Shown here: in pieces, positions 5,235 through 27,172 of the stretch
How positions within the stretch are numbered: position 1 is the stretch's first letter
Layout: each line of letters starts with the position of its first letter
Sequence record: PQ511146.1
DNA length: 64,000 nt
Origin: Escherichia phage NHEP1
Strand: one strand, 5' to 3'
Program-made: the position numbers and the translations under genes
Notes under the pieces: model-generated
Database searches by the model: none
What the model was told of the DNA's origin: nothing
The model's input: only the letters and a program-made list of their open reading frames with translations

Positions 5235-7313
5235 TTAAAAAGGTGTTTCGTCGTCTTCAAAACCAGGAACGTGGTTAGAGGACGGATCATCATACTGAAG
5301 GTCTTCCTGTGTGTCAACAGGGTTAACAGCAGGGGTTATAACCTTATCAGCCACAACCTTGCCCACAGGTGTTTCTACAACTGCATGCTCCTGATCCTCA
5401 AACATAGCCTGAGGTCTCCAAACAACCTCCCCACCTTCCCCGTCTGTAAACATCTGCATTTCTTTGTCCCAGTACCAGTTGCTGGCATCATAGAACTTGC
5501 CTGTGTGGGGATCCATAACTAGAGTGTCCGCAATACCTAAGGTTTTTGCTGGGCGGTTTTTAAGACCTACCAGTCGGACACGTCCACGGGAACGATCCAC
5601 CATCTCCTCTGCCTCTACCCCGACAACCACCCAGCTAAGTTGCTCCAATCCGGCACTACCGCGAAGGTTCTCTTTTCGTACAGGGTACCAGAAAGGTAAC
5701 GGATTTCCATCCTTATCCTTCGGAGGTACAATCTCTGTGCGCTTCAGGTGAGCAATCACCAAGATAAACACATTAAACTGCTTACAGAACGCGGCTAGTT
5801 GAGTCATAGCCATGTCAAGCTCTTTACGCTCATCCTTAACATTAAGCCCTGAAATCACCATAGACAGGTGATCCAGCACAATGTAACGGCAGTGATACAG
5901 GCACACCATTTGTTTAAGCTTAGTGATCAGCTCATCTACAGGGATGGAGCCGAAATGCTTGAACACTTTGATTTTTCCGGCCTTGGCCCAAGATTGATGA
6001 ATCTCAGCGTGCTCCTGATCGGTCAGGAACTGACTGGGGTCTTCAACAAACTCTTTAACATCAAACCCCAGCTGGTTAGCGTACAGAGAGTTGATTGCTT
6101 CCTCAGGATCCTCTTCAAGGTGAATCAGGCACAGGCGATCATCCTCTTCATAATCATCAGCTTTAGGGCATGTTGGATCCATCAAGTATCTTGCAATGCA
6201 ATGTTCCAGCTTCTTGGCTACAGTTGTTTTACCACCGCCAGACGGGCCTGTCAGCATCATCAAGGTGCCTTTGTGGAGTCCTTTCAGCATCTTCTGCAGT
6301 TTAGGGAACTCTGCACTGATATCTACGCCATTGGAAGTCTTCTTACGAAGAGATTCAATGGAGAAGTCTTCTAAATCAGATACAGCATCAGGCACATATT
6401 TGACTGGGTGACGGAACATGTTGACAATATCTTCCAGCTTTTTAGCCTTCAGCATGTCACGAATATCTTTTACACCATCAGGGTCGTTTACCTCACCCGG
6501 GTATTCCACGTGGTAAACGTTATCAGCCATCAAAAATGCTGCGATATTATGTGTGGCTTCAACACCTTTAATAACGTGTTTTTGCTTCTCTACCTCGTTA
6601 GCTGCATCGTTGTCCATTGCAAGGACCACTGTTCCGTAGCTACGGATAAATTTCTCATTGTTCGCAAAAGTGTCTACGGCGTTTGCACACCCACAGTTAA
6701 TTCCAACAAAAGGCAGGCATGGTTTTCCTGCCAGATCCCCGCCGTTGATAACTGCATCAATCCCATCCTGGACTTCTTTAGCCCACTGCTTCACCTTCGC
6801 TGGGGCTTTAGCATTGGTGAGAATTCCTTTTACTTGTATCTGATATGCAGCCTGCCACGCTGCAATAACATCTCCTTCTCCCTCACAAACGTTAATCTGC
6901 TTACGGTTGTTGGAGGATGCACACAGCTTTTGACCAAACATCTGGGAGTTGGCCTTTACTATGCCAACAACCGAGAAATGGCCCCTTTGCTCTTTAGGGA
7001 TTGTCCAGTCACGCTTTTTAAAGCCAGATAGATTACCGTAGCGGTCATAATACGGAAAGTAGGTGGCAGTAACAGTTACACCATCCTCTTGGGATAGCGA
7101 TGATCGTACACCAAAATATTGTGCAGCCATCAGTCCAATATTTTGTTGTGGAACAGGGACAATTTTAGTGTTTTCTAAAACAGTCTCCACAGTTTCAACT
7201 TCTTTTTCATCACGATAGTCTCGTTTCACACTCCCCCCACTTTTATACTTAGTTGCTTTCGGGTTTGGCTCACCGAAACGGTTGTATGCAGATGCCATGA
7301 ATTTACTGCCCAT
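5235..7313 (-). CDS. DNA primase/helicase (TOPRIM-like N-terminal region plus DnaB-like ATPase)
   Basis: 692 aa; Walker A LTGPSGGGKTT, Walker B-like YIVLDHLS; acidic VLAMDNDAANE region N-terminal of the ATPase; AAGGAG SD. Confidence 0.7.
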   Translation of the reverse strand: MGSKFMASAYNRFGEPNPKATKYKSGGSVKRDYRDEKEVETVETVLENTKIVPVPQQNIGLMAAQYFGVRSSLSQEDGVTVTATYFPYYDRYGNLSGFKKRDWTIPKEQRGHFSVVGIVKANSQMFGQKLCASSNNRKQINVCEGEGDVIAAWQAAYQIQVKGILTNAKAPAKVKQWAKEVQDGIDAVINGGDLAGKPCLPFVGINCGCANAVDTFANNEKFIRSYGTVVLAMDNDAANEVEKQKHVIKGVEATHNIAAFLMADNVYHVEYPGEVNDPDGVKDIRDMLKAKKLEDIVNMFRHPVKYVPDAVSDLEDFSIESLRKKTSNGVDISAEFPKLQKMLKGLHKGTLMMLTGPSGGGKTTVAKKLEHCIARYLMDPTCPKADDYEEDDRLCLIHLEEDPEEAINSLYANQLGFDVKEFVEDPSQFLTDQEHAEIHQSWAKAGKIKVFKHFGSIPVDELITKLKQMVCLYHCRYIVLDHLSMVISGLNVKDERKELDMAMTQLAAFCKQFNVFILVIAHLKRTEIVPPKDKDGNPLPFWYPVRKENLRGSAGLEQLSWVVVGVEAEEMVDRSRGRVRLVGLKNRPAKTLGIADTLVMDPHTGKFYDASNWYWDKEMQMFTDGEGGEVVWRPQAMFEDQEHAVVETPVGKVVADKVITPAVNPVDTQEDLQYDDPSSNHVPGFEDDETPF

Positions 7314-16187: not shown

Positions 16188-16218
16188 CTCCAAATAGAAA
16201 ATCCCCGCCGAAGCGGGG
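16188..16218 (-). terminator. rho-independent terminator (UUCG tetraloop)
   Basis: Minus transcript CCCCGC-UUCG-GCGGGG followed by AUUUUCUAUUU; downstream of 16232..16612. Confidence 0.65.
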
Positions 16219-16621: not shown

Positions 16622-17806
16622 TCAAGCTTTAGCTAAAATGGCGCTAAACTCTTCACCAAACTCTTTTACAATCTTCATCAGGTTTGGGTATGCTTTGATC
16701 AGCTGAGCGACGATCTTGTCCCTGCCTTTACCAATAAGTAAGGCATTTCCTAAGGCGTTAGGTTTCATCATCGCCATAAAGACTGAGAATACAAAGTCTC
16801 GGTTCTCATCCTTGAAATTTTCCCAAAGGAAATCAAGGAAGTTTGCCACACAGCTGACAAGATCTTCGTCGGAGATACTTGCATTTTCCATCATATTACG
16901 AATAGCGATACAACCTTCTGACCCCAGAATCCACAAGATGTCTGGCTGCTTAGGACCTACATATTCTTTGCAGCCTCCTGCCATAATCCGACCGATTTCT
17001 GGCAAGTTTCGTTTCTTGGTGTGGTAGGTCCAAATTTCTACCGCTGCAGTGTGACCAATTGCACCTTGTAGAAGGACACGGGCCATAGCGTCAGAAATAA
17101 TACCGCTGTCAAAATCGTGCAGGATGTCAGATGCAGCAACCCAAGATCGCGGTGTGGCAAAAGATGGACAATTAATCTCAGCCATGGCCTCATAATTATC
17201 AATGGCTGATGGGACTCTTTTCAGATATCCAATTACAGAGGAGTGCACCCCATTAAGGAATGCATAGTCCTCAATAAACACCTCTGCACTGCTTGTAACT
17301 TCTACAATGATAAAGCGGTTAGCTAGAGGAGCTTCGAGCGCCGAAAGAACAGCACCGTCTGTAGCACGGTTACCTGCAGCTACAAAAACAGAGCCCTTAG
17401 GAAATGCATAGGTGCCGCACTTGTGGTCGAGCATAATTTGCATTGCAACCTTCTGCAGGTAGTTATCTGCATGAGTAAGCTCGTCTAGAAAGATAATTCC
17501 GCTCCAGTCCGGATCTGCAGGCCAAAATTCTGGAATTGCAAACACTGTACGTGTAGTCCCATCCGACTCTACAGGGATAGGTAGCCCAGATAAGTCAGCA
17601 GGGTCTTTATCTGACAGTCGCACGTCAACAAGGTTGTCATCTCGCTCACCGAACATATTATCAGCGATCTGCTTCATCACCTGACTTTTACCCACACCCA
17701 TTGGTCCCAAAATTAGGACAGATCGGCTATGACGTTGGGCAAACTGAATAATGGCTGGCAACTCACGGACAGTGATTTGACCACTTTCGAATACGTTTCT
17801 TGACAT
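16622..17806 (-). CDS. AAA+ ATPase, MoxR/CobS-like (AAA_5-type)
   Basis: 394 aa; Walker A ILGPMGVGKSQV, Walker B IIFLDELTHA. Confidence 0.75.
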   Translation of the reverse strand: MSRNVFESGQITVRELPAIIQFAQRHSRSVLILGPMGVGKSQVMKQIADNMFGERDDNLVDVRLSDKDPADLSGLPIPVESDGTTRTVFAIPEFWPADPDWSGIIFLDELTHADNYLQKVAMQIMLDHKCGTYAFPKGSVFVAAGNRATDGAVLSALEAPLANRFIIVEVTSSAEVFIEDYAFLNGVHSSVIGYLKRVPSAIDNYEAMAEINCPSFATPRSWVAASDILHDFDSGIISDAMARVLLQGAIGHTAAVEIWTYHTKKRNLPEIGRIMAGGCKEYVGPKQPDILWILGSEGCIAIRNMMENASISDEDLVSCVANFLDFLWENFKDENRDFVFSVFMAMMKPNALGNALLIGKGRDKIVAQLIKAYPNLMKIVKEFGEEFSAILAKA

Positions 17807-19123: not shown

Positions 19124-19402
19124 TTAGGCAACTGTCATTTTACATTCTTTGAATTTTAGCACAAGACGGTGATTGTGTCTAGTGTCTAAAAAGATTTTTT
19201 CAACCATCAGGCACACGGTGTAACCGTCCATCTTATTGACAACAAAATCTCCAGGGTAAGGGAGAATGTCACCTGGACTGGGGAAACATAGCCCACTCAA
19301 GAAGGCATCGTCGGTGGTGGATTTAATGGATTTCCACACACTGTCTGCCTGAATATTTTCACCCACATAATATACACTACCACATGCCTTCATCATAGTC
19401 AA
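19124..19402 (-). CDS. hypothetical protein
   Basis: 92 aa ORF. Confidence 0.5.
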   Translation of the reverse strand: MTMMKACGSVYYVGENIQADSVWKSIKSTTDDAFLSGLCFPSPGDILPYPGDFVVNKMDGYTVCLMVEKIFLDTRHNHRLVLKFKECKMTVA

Positions 19403-20298
19403 ATCTCCGCGTAAATTAAACTGGAATCAGTATACTTCTTTAGTGGGTAAATATCCTGTCCATAGATGCCGTCATTAAACACCTCATCTACCCAAAGGCT
19501 ACACTTATATCCCATCATCTCTAAAACACCCATCTCTTCTTCGGTAAACTTATCACCGCTCTTGCAAGATGTCAATACCTCATTCTGTACTCTTGCCACC
19601 TCGAAGCGGTTATTGGCAATATCGCTATTAGCGATCAAATACTCACCCAAAGGGTGTGCGGCATTAAAGATGCACAGTGGACGGTTGACGTAATAGTCTC
19701 CAGGTGTATAAAAATTATTGAGGTCTTTCACTAGAACATTCTTATCAGTCACTTCATTCATAACATCATGCATATCGCACATCTTTATATGTTTGAGGAT
19801 TCCATCCCCCATCACAAAATAAAAACTTGCTGAAACACTTTCGGCATAGATCTTACTAGATCCGTTGTAGTTGTATTTTACTCGGATGCTAACGGGGGTT
19901 TTTCCTGTCGCGTTAGCCATCATCCAAAGAAATGGCAGCTCATACTTCTCCTCTGAGGAAACAAAAGGTGAAGTTGCCAGAGATCGGAAACCTCCAGAGA
20001 AGTTGAAAGTTACAGAACCGCTCCGGCGGTATGATACTGCGTATTCCACTTTTATATCAACATATCCGTTGGAGTAAGTATGCCCTCCATTATCAAGGTA
20101 TGTCCACTTATCGGACCCAGATACCAACCTCCGCTCAATTACCTTCATCACTACAGGGATTAGCGGATTAGTACAAACCGATTTTGAAGTAGCTTTATCA
20201 TCCAAAGCCTCGTAAATTGCAGAAAGGATATCACCTGCTGAGAGATTGGTTGTGATATCTTGTTTCCACCTGGTGCTAAAACTGTTAAGATTTGCCAT
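19399..20298 (-). CDS. hypothetical protein
   Basis: 299 aa; TAGGAGCAC SD before ATG; first gene after divergent promoter. Confidence 0.6.
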   Translation of the reverse strand: MANLNSFSTRWKQDITTNLSAGDILSAIYEALDDKATSKSVCTNPLIPVVMKVIERRLVSGSDKWTYLDNGGHTYSNGYVDIKVEYAVSYRRSGSVTFNFSGGFRSLATSPFVSSEEKYELPFLWMMANATGKTPVSIRVKYNYNGSSKIYAESVSASFYFVMGDGILKHIKMCDMHDVMNEVTDKNVLVKDLNNFYTPGDYYVNRPLCIFNAAHPLGEYLIANSDIANNRFEVARVQNEVLTSCKSGDKFTEEEMGVLEMMGYKCSLWVDEVFNDGIYGQDIYPLKKYTDSSLIYAEI

Positions 20299-20338
20299 GA
20301 GTAAGTGCTCCTATGTTAGTTTTCTTTTGAATGGGTGC

Positions 20339-20367
20339 ACTATATCGTGGATTTAGAGTAAAGTCAA
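20339..20367 (-). promoter_or_regulatory. sigma70-like promoter (TTGACT-N17-TATAGT) for leftward operon
   Basis: Read on minus strand: -35 TTGACT, 17-nt spacer, -10 TATAGT. Confidence 0.6.
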
Positions 20368-20380
20368 CACGTTTTTCAGG

Positions 20381-20409
20381 TTGACATCTTCTCAGGCACT
20401 TGGTAAGAT
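20381..20409 (+). promoter_or_regulatory. sigma70-like promoter (TTGACA-N17-TAAGAT) for rightward accessory operon
   Basis: -35 TTGACA at 20381-20386, 17-nt spacer, -10 TAAGAT; 14 bp from the divergent minus-strand promoter. Confidence 0.55.
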
Positions 20410-20440
20410 TTCTCCACCCACAGAGAACAAGAGACAACTC

Positions 20441-21430
20441 ATGAATCTTGAAAAATATTATACACCAGAAGAGTTAGAGCGCTTGCTCAAAAAATACAGA
20501 CGCAAACAGAATAACGCACGGAAACGGGATATAGAGTTCAACCTGTCATGGGAAGAATATCTCCTATTTGGTAAAAAACTTTTAGGAGAGGGAGTATGCG
20601 ACTATACCCTTATACCTTTCGACATGCACACAGATGAAAACGGACTGGGAAATCCTTTCTACCCATCTCTGGAGCGGATAGATGATGAAGGTCCTTATGC
20701 GGTTGACAATTGTTGTGTGGTGGGATTGAGATGCAACTCCCTAAAGGACTGCCTGGTAGATAAAAAGACCGCAGTCTTGATTAAAGACAAAACTGATCGA
20801 AAAATTGTCCAGCAGATGATGCTCCACCTGAGCGAAGAGCGTATGGAGAAATTGAAAGGTGATTACACTTTTGAAGATTTCATCTTGCAATATGGAACGG
20901 AAGAGGATAAACTAGCACTCTTTGACGAAGAATGGGAGGAAGATATGTCACCGATGCAGGATTTTAAAAACTTCATGGCTAATCGTGGAGCCAACAAGCA
21001 CATTTCTGACATTGTAAACGAGCCTGTAGTAGAGGAGATTGGAGAGATGACGCAACAGGCTTACGAAGAGGAAAAAGAGCCTCAAGTGGTCGAAGAAGAG
21101 CTTACAGAAGAGGTTCCTGCACTGCCTGACGATGTTGAGATTGCCAAAGCTTACACTTTCTATTGCCAGACGTTCTACGATGCAGGTATGAAAGTTGATC
21201 TGTCATTCAGCCAGTTTAAGAGCACATACATTCGAAAATGTTGTGCTTTAACTGGTGAACGTCTCGGTGCCGGACTTAAACCCCTATTAGTTACCGACTG
21301 GAACAAAGGTTTCACCAAAGGTAACTTCATGGTAGTATCTCCAATCATGGAGAAGGCTATGACAGACCTTATGAAGACCACTCGCATGACAATGACCGAG
21401 TTGGCTGGTATTTTCAAGCACGTTAAATAA
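20441..21430 (+). CDS. hypothetical acidic protein with two related Cys-containing segments
   Basis: Track ORF starts at TTG inside the promoter -35; first ATG is 20441; acidic linker EEEKEPQVVEEELTEEVP. Confidence 0.55.
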   Translation: MNLEKYYTPEELERLLKKYRRKQNNARKRDIEFNLSWEEYLLFGKKLLGEGVCDYTLIPFDMHTDENGLGNPFYPSLERIDDEGPYAVDNCCVVGLRCNSLKDCLVDKKTAVLIKDKTDRKIVQQMMLHLSEERMEKLKGDYTFEDFILQYGTEEDKLALFDEEWEEDMSPMQDFKNFMANRGANKHISDIVNEPVVEEIGEMTQQAYEEEKEPQVVEEELTEEVPALPDDVEIAKAYTFYCQTFYDAGMKVDLSFSQFKSTYIRKCCALTGERLGAGLKPLLVTDWNKGFTKGNFMVVSPIMEKAMTDLMKTTRMTMTELAGIFKHVK

Positions 21431-21435
21431 TGACA

Positions 21436-21450
21436 GGGGCCATTGGCCCC
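21436..21450 (+). other. intergenic hairpin GGGGCC-ATT-GGCCCC (possible weak terminator/attenuator)
   Basis: Perfect 6-bp GC stem between stop at 21430 and next start; weak U-tract. Confidence 0.4.
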
Positions 21451-21463
21451 TTCTGGAGTTTTA

Positions 21464-22924
21464 ATGGATAGCAGAAGTTCAGAAATCATTACCGCACAAA
21501 AAGATGATGCCTTGCGAATGCTGCAGGCCGCTCGCATGTACCTTCTTGAAAAGCTGCCGTTTTATGGCACACTGTTGTCAGGGTTGCAGTTCGTAGAAAA
21601 CCACACATGGTGCTCCACTATGGCAACAGACCATAAACGCATCTACTACAGCCCTGAGTTCATTATGGGGTTGGCAGATGAGCGTAAAACCATTCTTAAA
21701 GCATCTCTGACTGACAAGCAGTTTGAGATGGCTGAAGTTTTCTATTCCCCAAAATCTGTGAAAGAGGTGGCCTTTCTTCTGTCACATGAGGTGGGGCATA
21801 TTATCTGTGATCATCTGGTCCGTGGTAAAAGCTTTGAGCCGGAACTGTTCAATATTGCTTGTGATCACGTTATCAACACAGGTCTTGTGGTTGACTTTAG
21901 CAAGCCTCCTTGTGTTTTCTTCCCGAAGGGGAAAAGCACTGAGTTCGTAAAAGGTAAGCCTTTTGGCTTCTTAGCTAATTGCTACTGCGACATGAAGTTT
22001 CATGGATGGATTGCGGAGAACGTCTATGCAGTTCTTGATAAACAAAGAGATCAGAATGGCGGTAAAAGTAAGAACGGTAAAGGTGAGAACTCCCAAGGAG
22101 ATAAACGACAAACCGATGATCACATGAGCGGGAACGGTGGCACTAGTGATGATCTTGGAAAGGCTATGGGGTATGATCAGCCGCAACCAGTAATCAGTCA
22201 ATCGGATAAAGATCAGGCCATGCAGGACTCTGGTGACATGTTGGAAGCAGCAATGCAAGCTTCAGGAGGTCGTTGCCCCGAGGCGGTGCGCGAGTTTGTC
22301 AAAAACAGAGGCAAGCCTGTAATCAATTATATAGATATTATTAAGCAACGTATGTTATCTAAAAGAAAGGCTGAGTTAACCTACAGAAAACCTGGTCGCC
22401 GATCTGGGTCTTTGACCACCACAATGCGAAAAGTTGGAGCTATAAACAAGAATCAACACGTTATTGTTCCTGGTCGTAATCCGGAAAACACTATAGATAT
22501 TGTAGTGGCTTTAGACGTTTCTGGGTCGATCTCACAAAGAACTTTAAAGAAAATGTTCAATGAGATCACCGGGTTGTGCAATTTGTATAAAGAGTTTAAG
22601 GTTACGATGTTCTGTTGGTCAACCGAGGTTGGAGAGGTTAAAGTATACACTCGCGGTAACATCGATGAGATGATCAACTATGAGGTCCACTCAACATGGG
22701 GCACAACAGCCGCCTGCGTGTTCGAGTATCTTGATGCTAACATACCGAATGCAAAAGATGTCATCGTCCTTACCGACCTCTACTTTGAGCATAACTTTGA
22801 ACAAAAGGCTGTTGACAACAAGTGGAAAAAGTACGATACTTTATGGGTTCTCACCGAAGGGTATAATAAAAATTATATCCCGAGCTTTGGGAAAACTGTG
22901 GAATTAATCGAGTACGCTAAGTAA
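21464..22924 (+). CDS. metallopeptidase-like (HExxH) + von Willebrand factor A domain protein
   Basis: 486 aa; LLSHEVGHIICDH motif; C-terminal MIDAS-like VALDVSGSIS; track TTG start replaced by ATG after GGAG SD. Confidence 0.7.
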   Translation: MDSRSSEIITAQKDDALRMLQAARMYLLEKLPFYGTLLSGLQFVENHTWCSTMATDHKRIYYSPEFIMGLADERKTILKASLTDKQFEMAEVFYSPKSVKEVAFLLSHEVGHIICDHLVRGKSFEPELFNIACDHVINTGLVVDFSKPPCVFFPKGKSTEFVKGKPFGFLANCYCDMKFHGWIAENVYAVLDKQRDQNGGKSKNGKGENSQGDKRQTDDHMSGNGGTSDDLGKAMGYDQPQPVISQSDKDQAMQDSGDMLEAAMQASGGRCPEAVREFVKNRGKPVINYIDIIKQRMLSKRKAELTYRKPGRRSGSLTTTMRKVGAINKNQHVIVPGRNPENTIDIVVALDVSGSISQRTLKKMFNEITGLCNLYKEFKVTMFCWSTEVGEVKVYTRGNIDEMINYEVHSTWGTTAACVFEYLDANIPNAKDVIVLTDLYFEHNFEQKAVDNKWKKYDTLWVLTEGYNKNYIPSFGKTVELIEYAK

Positions 22925-27145: not shown

Positions 27146-27172
27146 GAAAGGGGCCATTTGGCCCCTTTTTTA
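27146..27172. terminator. bidirectional rho-independent terminator between convergent transcription units
   Basis: AAAAAGAAAGGGGCC-AUUU-GGCCCCUUUUUU: 6-bp GC stem flanked by A-run and U-run. Confidence 0.75.

Follow-up and report, generated by a model that had tools for sequence, protein, structure and literature searches.

The 142-bp intergenic spacer at which two gene blocks diverge in Escherichia phage NHEP1 (PQ511146.1) very probably holds a pair of back-to-back sigma-70 promoters, one driving a leftward and the other a rightward transcription unit. We analysed this site within a 64,000-nt stretch of the genome (the window), and all positions are counted from its first nucleotide. Judged by sequence and position, the two predicted promoters are orthologs of P010 and P011 of phage rV5. 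Because the same pair was predicted for rV5 in 2013, the feature is an ordinary and already known one, and finding it here is a rediscovery of that published prediction. The original prediction, which was made from the DNA sequence of the window, held that the pair probably recruits host RNA polymerase; this reading is supported by the motifs, their excess over chance, their orientation, their conservation and the rV5 prediction.

Re-reading of the sequence and a promoter scan returned both promoters with the hexamers and positions that had originally been given. From position 20339, the plus strand reads ACTATA-TCGTGGATTTAGAGTAA-AGTCAA-CACGTTTTTCAGG-TTGACA-TCTTCTCAGGCACTTGG-TAAGAT. The leftward promoter, on the minus strand, consists of the -35 hexamer TTGACT (20362-20367; 5/6), a 17-nt spacer (20345-20361) and the -10 hexamer TATAGT (20339-20344; 5/6 to TATAAT). 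The rightward promoter, on the plus strand, consists of the -35 hexamer TTGACA (20381-20386; 6/6), a 17-nt spacer (20387-20403) that ends in the extended -10 motif TGn (T20401, G20402) and the -10 hexamer TAAGAT (20404-20409; 4/6 to TATAAT). Both -10 hexamers have T1, A2 and T6, and both spacers lie within the sigma-70 criterion of 17 +/- 1 bp. The scan, which serves as the promoter-prediction check that had been proposed, called both sites at 10/12 and flagged the TG before the plus-strand -10; the leftward promoter has CGA before TATAGT instead. The sites, which had been described as consensus promoters, are of near-consensus sequence, and the gap between their -35 hexamers is 13 bp (20368-20380, CACGTTTTTCAGG) rather than 14 bp. 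The claimed back-to-back arrangement where the two gene blocks diverge is borne out, with each promoter facing its own gene.

Predicted transcription starts lie 7 nt after each -10 hexamer, the usual -10-to-start distance, at A20332 on the minus strand and A20416 on the plus strand. These starts would be 84 bp apart, which leaves the core elements of the leftward (20339-20367) and rightward (20381-20409) promoters free of overlap. Counted from the predicted starts, the leftward leader is 34 nt long with an AGGAG Shine-Dalgarno sequence at 20308-20312, and the rightward leader is 25 nt long with a weak GAGA Shine-Dalgarno sequence. The spacer itself spans 20299-20440, since the start codon of gene 11 is the ATG at 20441.

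At the centre of the region is a T5/A5 tract (20372-20376), which occupies positions -44 to -40 of both promoters. The minus strand reads AAAAACGTG-TTGACT, so that AAAAACGTG lies at -44 to -36 of the leftward promoter, and the rightward promoter sees T5. The proximal UP subsite is an A/T tract in the region from -38 to -46 with the consensus AAAAAARNR. The tract looks like a proximal UP element of the leftward promoter, a putative function suggested by its sequence and position. Each -35 hexamer falls at about -54 to -49 of the opposite promoter.

Taken together, these elements suggest that the spacer comprises two promoters for unmodified host RNA polymerase carrying sigma-70, which would bind both sites upon entry of the DNA. 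From a start near A20332, the leftward promoter would serve gene 10 and those lying further left, with transcription reaching at least its first strong intrinsic terminator (CCCCGCTTCGGCGGGG plus ATTTTCTATT; 16203-16218, minus strand), an ortholog of rV5 t003. From a start near A20416, the rightward promoter would serve genes 11 and 12 as well as roughly 15 small genes, and its unit would close at a bidirectional terminator (27147-27168) that is an ortholog of rV5 t026/t027. As a proximal UP element, the A5 tract would help the leftward site, and TGn would offset the 4/6 -10 hexamer of the rightward site. The leftward block contains homologs of rV5 genes 10 to 1 (hypothetical proteins, a MoxR ATPase, a cell-wall hydrolase, rIIA and rIIB), and the rightward block contains homologs of rV5 genes 11 to 26 (a Srd-like gene, gene 12 encoding a DUF2201 metallopeptidase/VWA protein, and many small proteins). 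This gene content and the type of promoter point to both blocks being early.

Proteins of the MoxR ATPase family usually act together with VWA proteins. The MoxR-type AAA ATPase gene (16622-17806, minus strand) and the DUF2201 metallopeptidase/VWA-like gene (21464-22924, plus strand) lie on opposite arms of the divergent pair, and they would then be a likely functional pair split between the two units. We also observed a GC-rich hairpin, GGGGCC-ATT-GGCCCC (21436-21450), between the stop of gene 11 (21430) and the ATG of gene 12 (21464). The plus-strand sequence after it, TTCTGGAGTTTTA, contains the Shine-Dalgarno sequence of gene 12, and the scan called the hairpin terminator-like on the minus strand only. 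Inside the rightward unit, the hairpin may act as an attenuator or as a signal for mRNA stability or processing.

The first leftward gene (19399-20298, minus strand; 299 codons from the ATG at 20298) is a homolog of rV5 gp010 and belongs to PHROG 12338, a family of unknown function. It is annotated as a 'putative alpha 1-3 fucosyltransferase', an annotation that is poorly supported, as a Pfam search with gene 10 gave no hit. The first rightward gene (20441-21430, plus strand; 329 codons) is a homolog of rV5 gp011. Its whole protein matches PHROG 3118 (HNH endonuclease), and residues 13-110 match weakly, at the PHROG level, to the Srd, sigma-70-decoy and endonuclease VII families. The names given to gene 11 across records (Srd-like anti-sigma factor, anti-termination protein and HNH endonuclease) conflict and are poorly supported.

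The annotated start of gene 11 also varies. A program-made list of open reading frames starts it at 20381, on the TTG that opens the -35 hexamer TTGACA, and at least one GenBank record (LR597647) does the same. Most records use the ATG at 20441, and the RefSeq record of rV5 uses a TTG 42 nt inside (the loci concerned are 20381-20443 in the window, 6737-7777 in L002 and 6787-7722 in L003). A coding start at the -35 TTG, which swallows the promoter, is probably wrong. Two further small matches are probably due to chance. The sequence TGTTAAGATTT at the start of gene 10 (20283-20293) nearly duplicates the rightward extended -10 region TGGTAAGATTT (20401-20411) and, with TTTCCA 17 nt upstream, forms a weak extra plus-strand site of 8/12. 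Both start codons stand in the 7-nt context ACTCATG (20296-20302 and 20437-20443), which makes an inverted repeat.

Consensus scans are prone to false positives, and a window this large is expected to give about 15 matches at 10/12 or better, so we considered whether both sites might be chance resemblances within the intergenic spacer. Across both strands of the whole window we found 36 such matches, compared with 15.3 +/- 4.2 in 60 dinucleotide-preserving shuffles of the window scanned with the same promoter criteria. From the shuffle rate, the joint probability that a 142-bp stretch carries one or more matches on both strands comes to about 3e-4. The matches also follow the gene map, in which the coding strand is minus over 1-20298, plus between 20441 and about 27100, and minus once more over the structural genes (27184-64000). 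Of the 18 strong matches in the two divergent blocks (1-27100), 17 are co-oriented with the genes, and in the structural-gene block the two orientations are equally frequent (9:9). The orientation of the two sites, their distance from the genes and their site-specific conservation, both in the genus and in a clade at about 65% protein identity, oppose a chance origin, the probability of which we regard as close to negligible.

The pattern of conservation is that expected of working -35/-10 promoters, with conserved hexamers, lengths and TG amid drifting spacers. We aligned the region 20150-20600 from 14 distinct Vequintavirus haplotypes and four IMG/VR contigs (L006-L009), 18 sequences in all. 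Among the 14 haplotypes, 2 of the 24 hexamer columns vary, compared with 27 of the 47 columns in the spacers and gap (13/17 in the leftward spacer, 9/17 in the rightward spacer and 5/13 in the gap; one-sided Fisher p = 4e-5) and with 48 of the 118 other intergenic columns taken together (p = 0.0014); the aligned sequences are related by descent rather than independent samples, so these p values are indicative. Within the genus, the rightward -10 varies at its third position alone (A/C), and the leftward -10 differs in one haplotype, which reads TACAGT. The T5 tract and the ten bases past the leftward -10 (20329-20338), which form the discriminator and start region, show no variation in the genus. 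The rightward -35 hexamer, the TG at 20401-20402 and the 17-nt length of both spacers are the same in all 18 sequences, and the leftward -35 hexamer is likewise invariant in the 14 haplotypes and the IMG/VR clade. In that clade, the gene 11 protein is 64-67% identical and the spacer sequences are unrelated. It nevertheless retains AGTCAA, a gap of 13-14 bp with T5, TTGACA, the 17-nt spacers and TGn, and its -10-like hexamers read TATTCT on the left and TAGTGT or TAATGT on the right.

The window comes from an rV5-like E. coli phage of the genus Vequintavirus. At the DNA level the region shares 99.2% identity with Escherichia phage B9-1. It matches 117 phage records, all of them rV5-like (Vequintavirus), and blastn beyond the genus returned Vequintavirus records alone, at 86.5-100% identity. 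The name 'Campylobacter phage' (host C. jejuni) is carried by 16 GenBank records (for example, MG065644 and MG065659) that also match this E. coli rV5-like region, at about 90-93% identity among the matches listed. One that we opened is flagged UNVERIFIED, and these records look like mislabelled or contaminant coliphage genomes.

The rV5 genome paper (Kropinski et al. 2013, Virol J 10:76, PMC3606486) proposes four transcription units, two of which are 10-1-238-164 and 11-26. In its Table S4, P010 is given at 6636-6681 on the minus strand, as CAAAAACGTG-TTGACT...TATAGT, and P011 at 6685-6713 on the plus strand, as TTGACA...TGATACGAT; P010 is counted there among the MEME-supported promoters (PMC3606486). 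The 142-bp spacer of NHEP1 aligns with that of rV5 without gaps, which places the promoters at the coordinates published for rV5, and the 451-bp query 20150-20600 (spacer and flanking coding sequence) is 90.5% identical to rV5. The two phages share the position between gene 10 and gene 11, TTGACT-N17-TATAGT, TTGACA-N17 with TGn and the 13-bp gap. They differ in the rightward -10, which is TAAGAT here and TACGAT in rV5, and in several bases of the spacers and gap. Both the rV5 pair and the pair described here are computational predictions. Start-site, RNA-seq or polymerase-binding data for Vequintavirinae phages did not turn up in the portions of the literature that our search covered; polymerase binding and initiation at the two sites are predicted.

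The rV5 authors also proposed a late-promoter motif, TggTAaAAtA (PMC3606486), and the plus-strand sequence TGGTAAGATT resembles it. The sites might then serve a phage-modified polymerase, as middle or late promoters do, rather than the unmodified host enzyme. Most other members of the genus, however, read TGATAAGAT or TGATACGAT at this place, so that the likeness to the late motif is that of an extended -10. Strong -35 hexamers, absent from promoters of the T4 late type, moreover stand at optimal spacing in both sites, and the downstream genes are small non-structural genes together with rII, MoxR and Srd-like genes, with no virion genes among them. We therefore regard a modified-polymerase class as extremely unlikely and retain the reading as sigma-70 promoters.

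Because the DNA search matched Vequintavirus records alone, we reached more distant genera through the gene 11 protein. This gave ten phages or loci: PVP-SE1, GAP31 and FENT2 (Seunavirus), Av-05 (Avunavirus), DP and Ro1 (Mydovirus), Hena1 and pEp_SNUABM_01 (Henunavirus), a Serratia phage and Salmonella phage SSBI34. Eight of the ten have a divergence point at which the gene 11 homolog comes first. The two exceptions are the Serratia phage and SSBI34, whose homolog is separated from the divergence point by one to four small genes; here the promoter is at the divergence point itself. A rightward promoter of the form TTGACA-N16/17-(G/C/T)AT.AT, scoring 10-11/12, is present in all ten, and the PVP-SE1 record has it annotated as a promoter. 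Leftward candidates in the other genera score 8-9/12, with the exception of SSBI34 (11/12). In two more distant phages, a Klebsiella phage of the Stephanstirmvirinae and an Aeromonas phage, the gene 11 homolog lies within a co-oriented block rather than at a divergence point.

The difference between the two sides raises the possibility that the rightward promoter alone is a major one, with the leftward match weak or non-functional and the leftward genes transcribed mainly from promoters inside their block. The rightward scores across all Vequintavirinae genera examined and the weaker leftward ones in most others are consistent with this, as are further co-oriented minus-strand matches at 20060, 19181, 15857 and elsewhere. 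The RefSeq record of rV5 (NC_011041) points the same way, as the sole promoter annotated at the site is P11, a sigma-70-type promoter with the -10 TACGAT. Outside Vequintavirus and its sister clade, what is conserved on the leftward side could alternatively be the upstream part of the rightward promoter. Within the genus, by contrast, the leftward site has a score of 10/12, an optimal 17-nt spacer, an invariant -35 and a -10 that is changed in one haplotype out of 14. The start region of this site is also invariant while its spacer is free to vary, the A5 tract lies at -44 to -40, there is no other strong promoter upstream of gene 10, and the rV5 paper includes the leftward promoter in its MEME-supported set (PMC3606486). 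A rightward promoter acting alone thus seems to us quite unlikely, and we favour two functional promoters, possibly of unequal strength.

Across Vequintavirinae, three classes of spacing separate the inverted -35 hexamers, namely 3-4 bp (five groups), 13-14 bp (Vequintavirus and the sister clade) and 23 bp (SSBI34), in steps of about one helical turn (seen in the regions upstream of the gene 11 homologs of L010-L017, L020 and L021). In Vequintavirus, an invariant A/T tract also lies exactly midway between the promoters. These two observations are the basis for supposing that the promoters form a phase-locked unit, co-regulated by geometry alone through a shared or contested UP-like element or through supercoiling coupling. 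There are three classes, and the leftward matches are weak in the 3-4 bp class (8-9/12), so the helical-turn pattern is a hint, and we consider phase locking unlikely.

The same inverted hexamers allow another reading, in which the conserved near-palindromic core GTCAAC-N11-GTTGAC is an operator, bound by a dimeric regulator from phage or host that would switch both units together; this role could replace that of two -35 elements or come on top of it. The two -35 regions form a perfect 6-bp inverted repeat around the invariant T5 tract, and the annotation of the first rightward gene product as anti-sigma or Srd-like makes feedback on the region conceivable. Such a repeat, however, arises automatically from any back-to-back promoter pair, and an operator-only model leaves the conserved -10 hexamers, TGn and the fixed 17-nt spacers unexplained. 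The hexamer distances of 3-4 or 23 bp in other genera also fit poorly with one fixed dimer site, and no DNA-binding regulator was identified nearby. We judge an operator very unlikely and prefer to read these hexamers as the -35 elements of two promoters. The idea of anti-sigma feedback was set aside on account of the conflicting PHROG names of gene 11 and because its product gave no Pfam hit and no related solved structure.

Other functions for the spacer were sought in the sequence around it. An Rfam scan of 19800-21600 at E <= 1 returned no family. Repeats in 20280-20460 comprised nothing beyond two-copy matches of 7-11 nt (one direct and two inverted), all probably due to chance, and they give no support to a replication origin or packaging site. 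The sign of the GC skew changes near 20 kb, where it coincides with the switch in gene orientation.

The region shares features with several known systems. Back-to-back divergent sigma-70 promoter pairs in bacteria were reportedly classified by Beck and Warren in 1988, and the twin-domain supercoiling model is said to be that of Liu and Wang (1987). Negative supercoiling from divergent transcription could couple two promoters. Like the bacterial pairs, the site described here has two non-overlapping core promoters that would fire away from each other, and the distance of about 84 bp between their predicted starts would in principle let both polymerases bind simultaneously. It differs from bacterial divergent pairs in that no regulator site was identified between the promoters. 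The early promoters of phage T4 are strong sigma-70 promoters equipped with UP elements and extended -10 motifs. The predicted pair resembles them in its near-consensus -35 and -10 hexamers, its optimal spacing, its TGn and its upstream A/T tracts, and would likewise be served by the unmodified host polymerase. A further likeness to T4 is the Srd-like gene downstream, as the rV5 authors noted; the same paper describes rV5-type phages as having no homologs of T4 gp33, gp45 and gp55 (PMC3606486).

Closer in taxonomy, a putative early promoter of the form AAAA(N3-4)TGTTGAC(N17-19)TATAAT, including a UP-like part, has been predicted for Certrevirus, a genus of the same subfamily (PMC7344957). The leftward site fits this consensus with AAAA-ACG-TGTTGAC, and in Certrevirus, as described there, and in the phage analysed here predicted promoters cluster in blocks of small genes that are taken to be early (PMC7344957). 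By contrast, the rightward site has no AAAA, reads GGTTGAC and carries an extended -10 instead.

These results raise no new biological question, apart from a minor one, namely whether coupling between the two polymerases underlies the helical-turn spacing classes. The exact coordinates could be used for start-site mapping or as compact bidirectional promoter parts, although this practical value is small. The results mean that the predicted transcription map of rV5 carries over to this phage, and that the predicted rightward promoter carries over to the whole subfamily.
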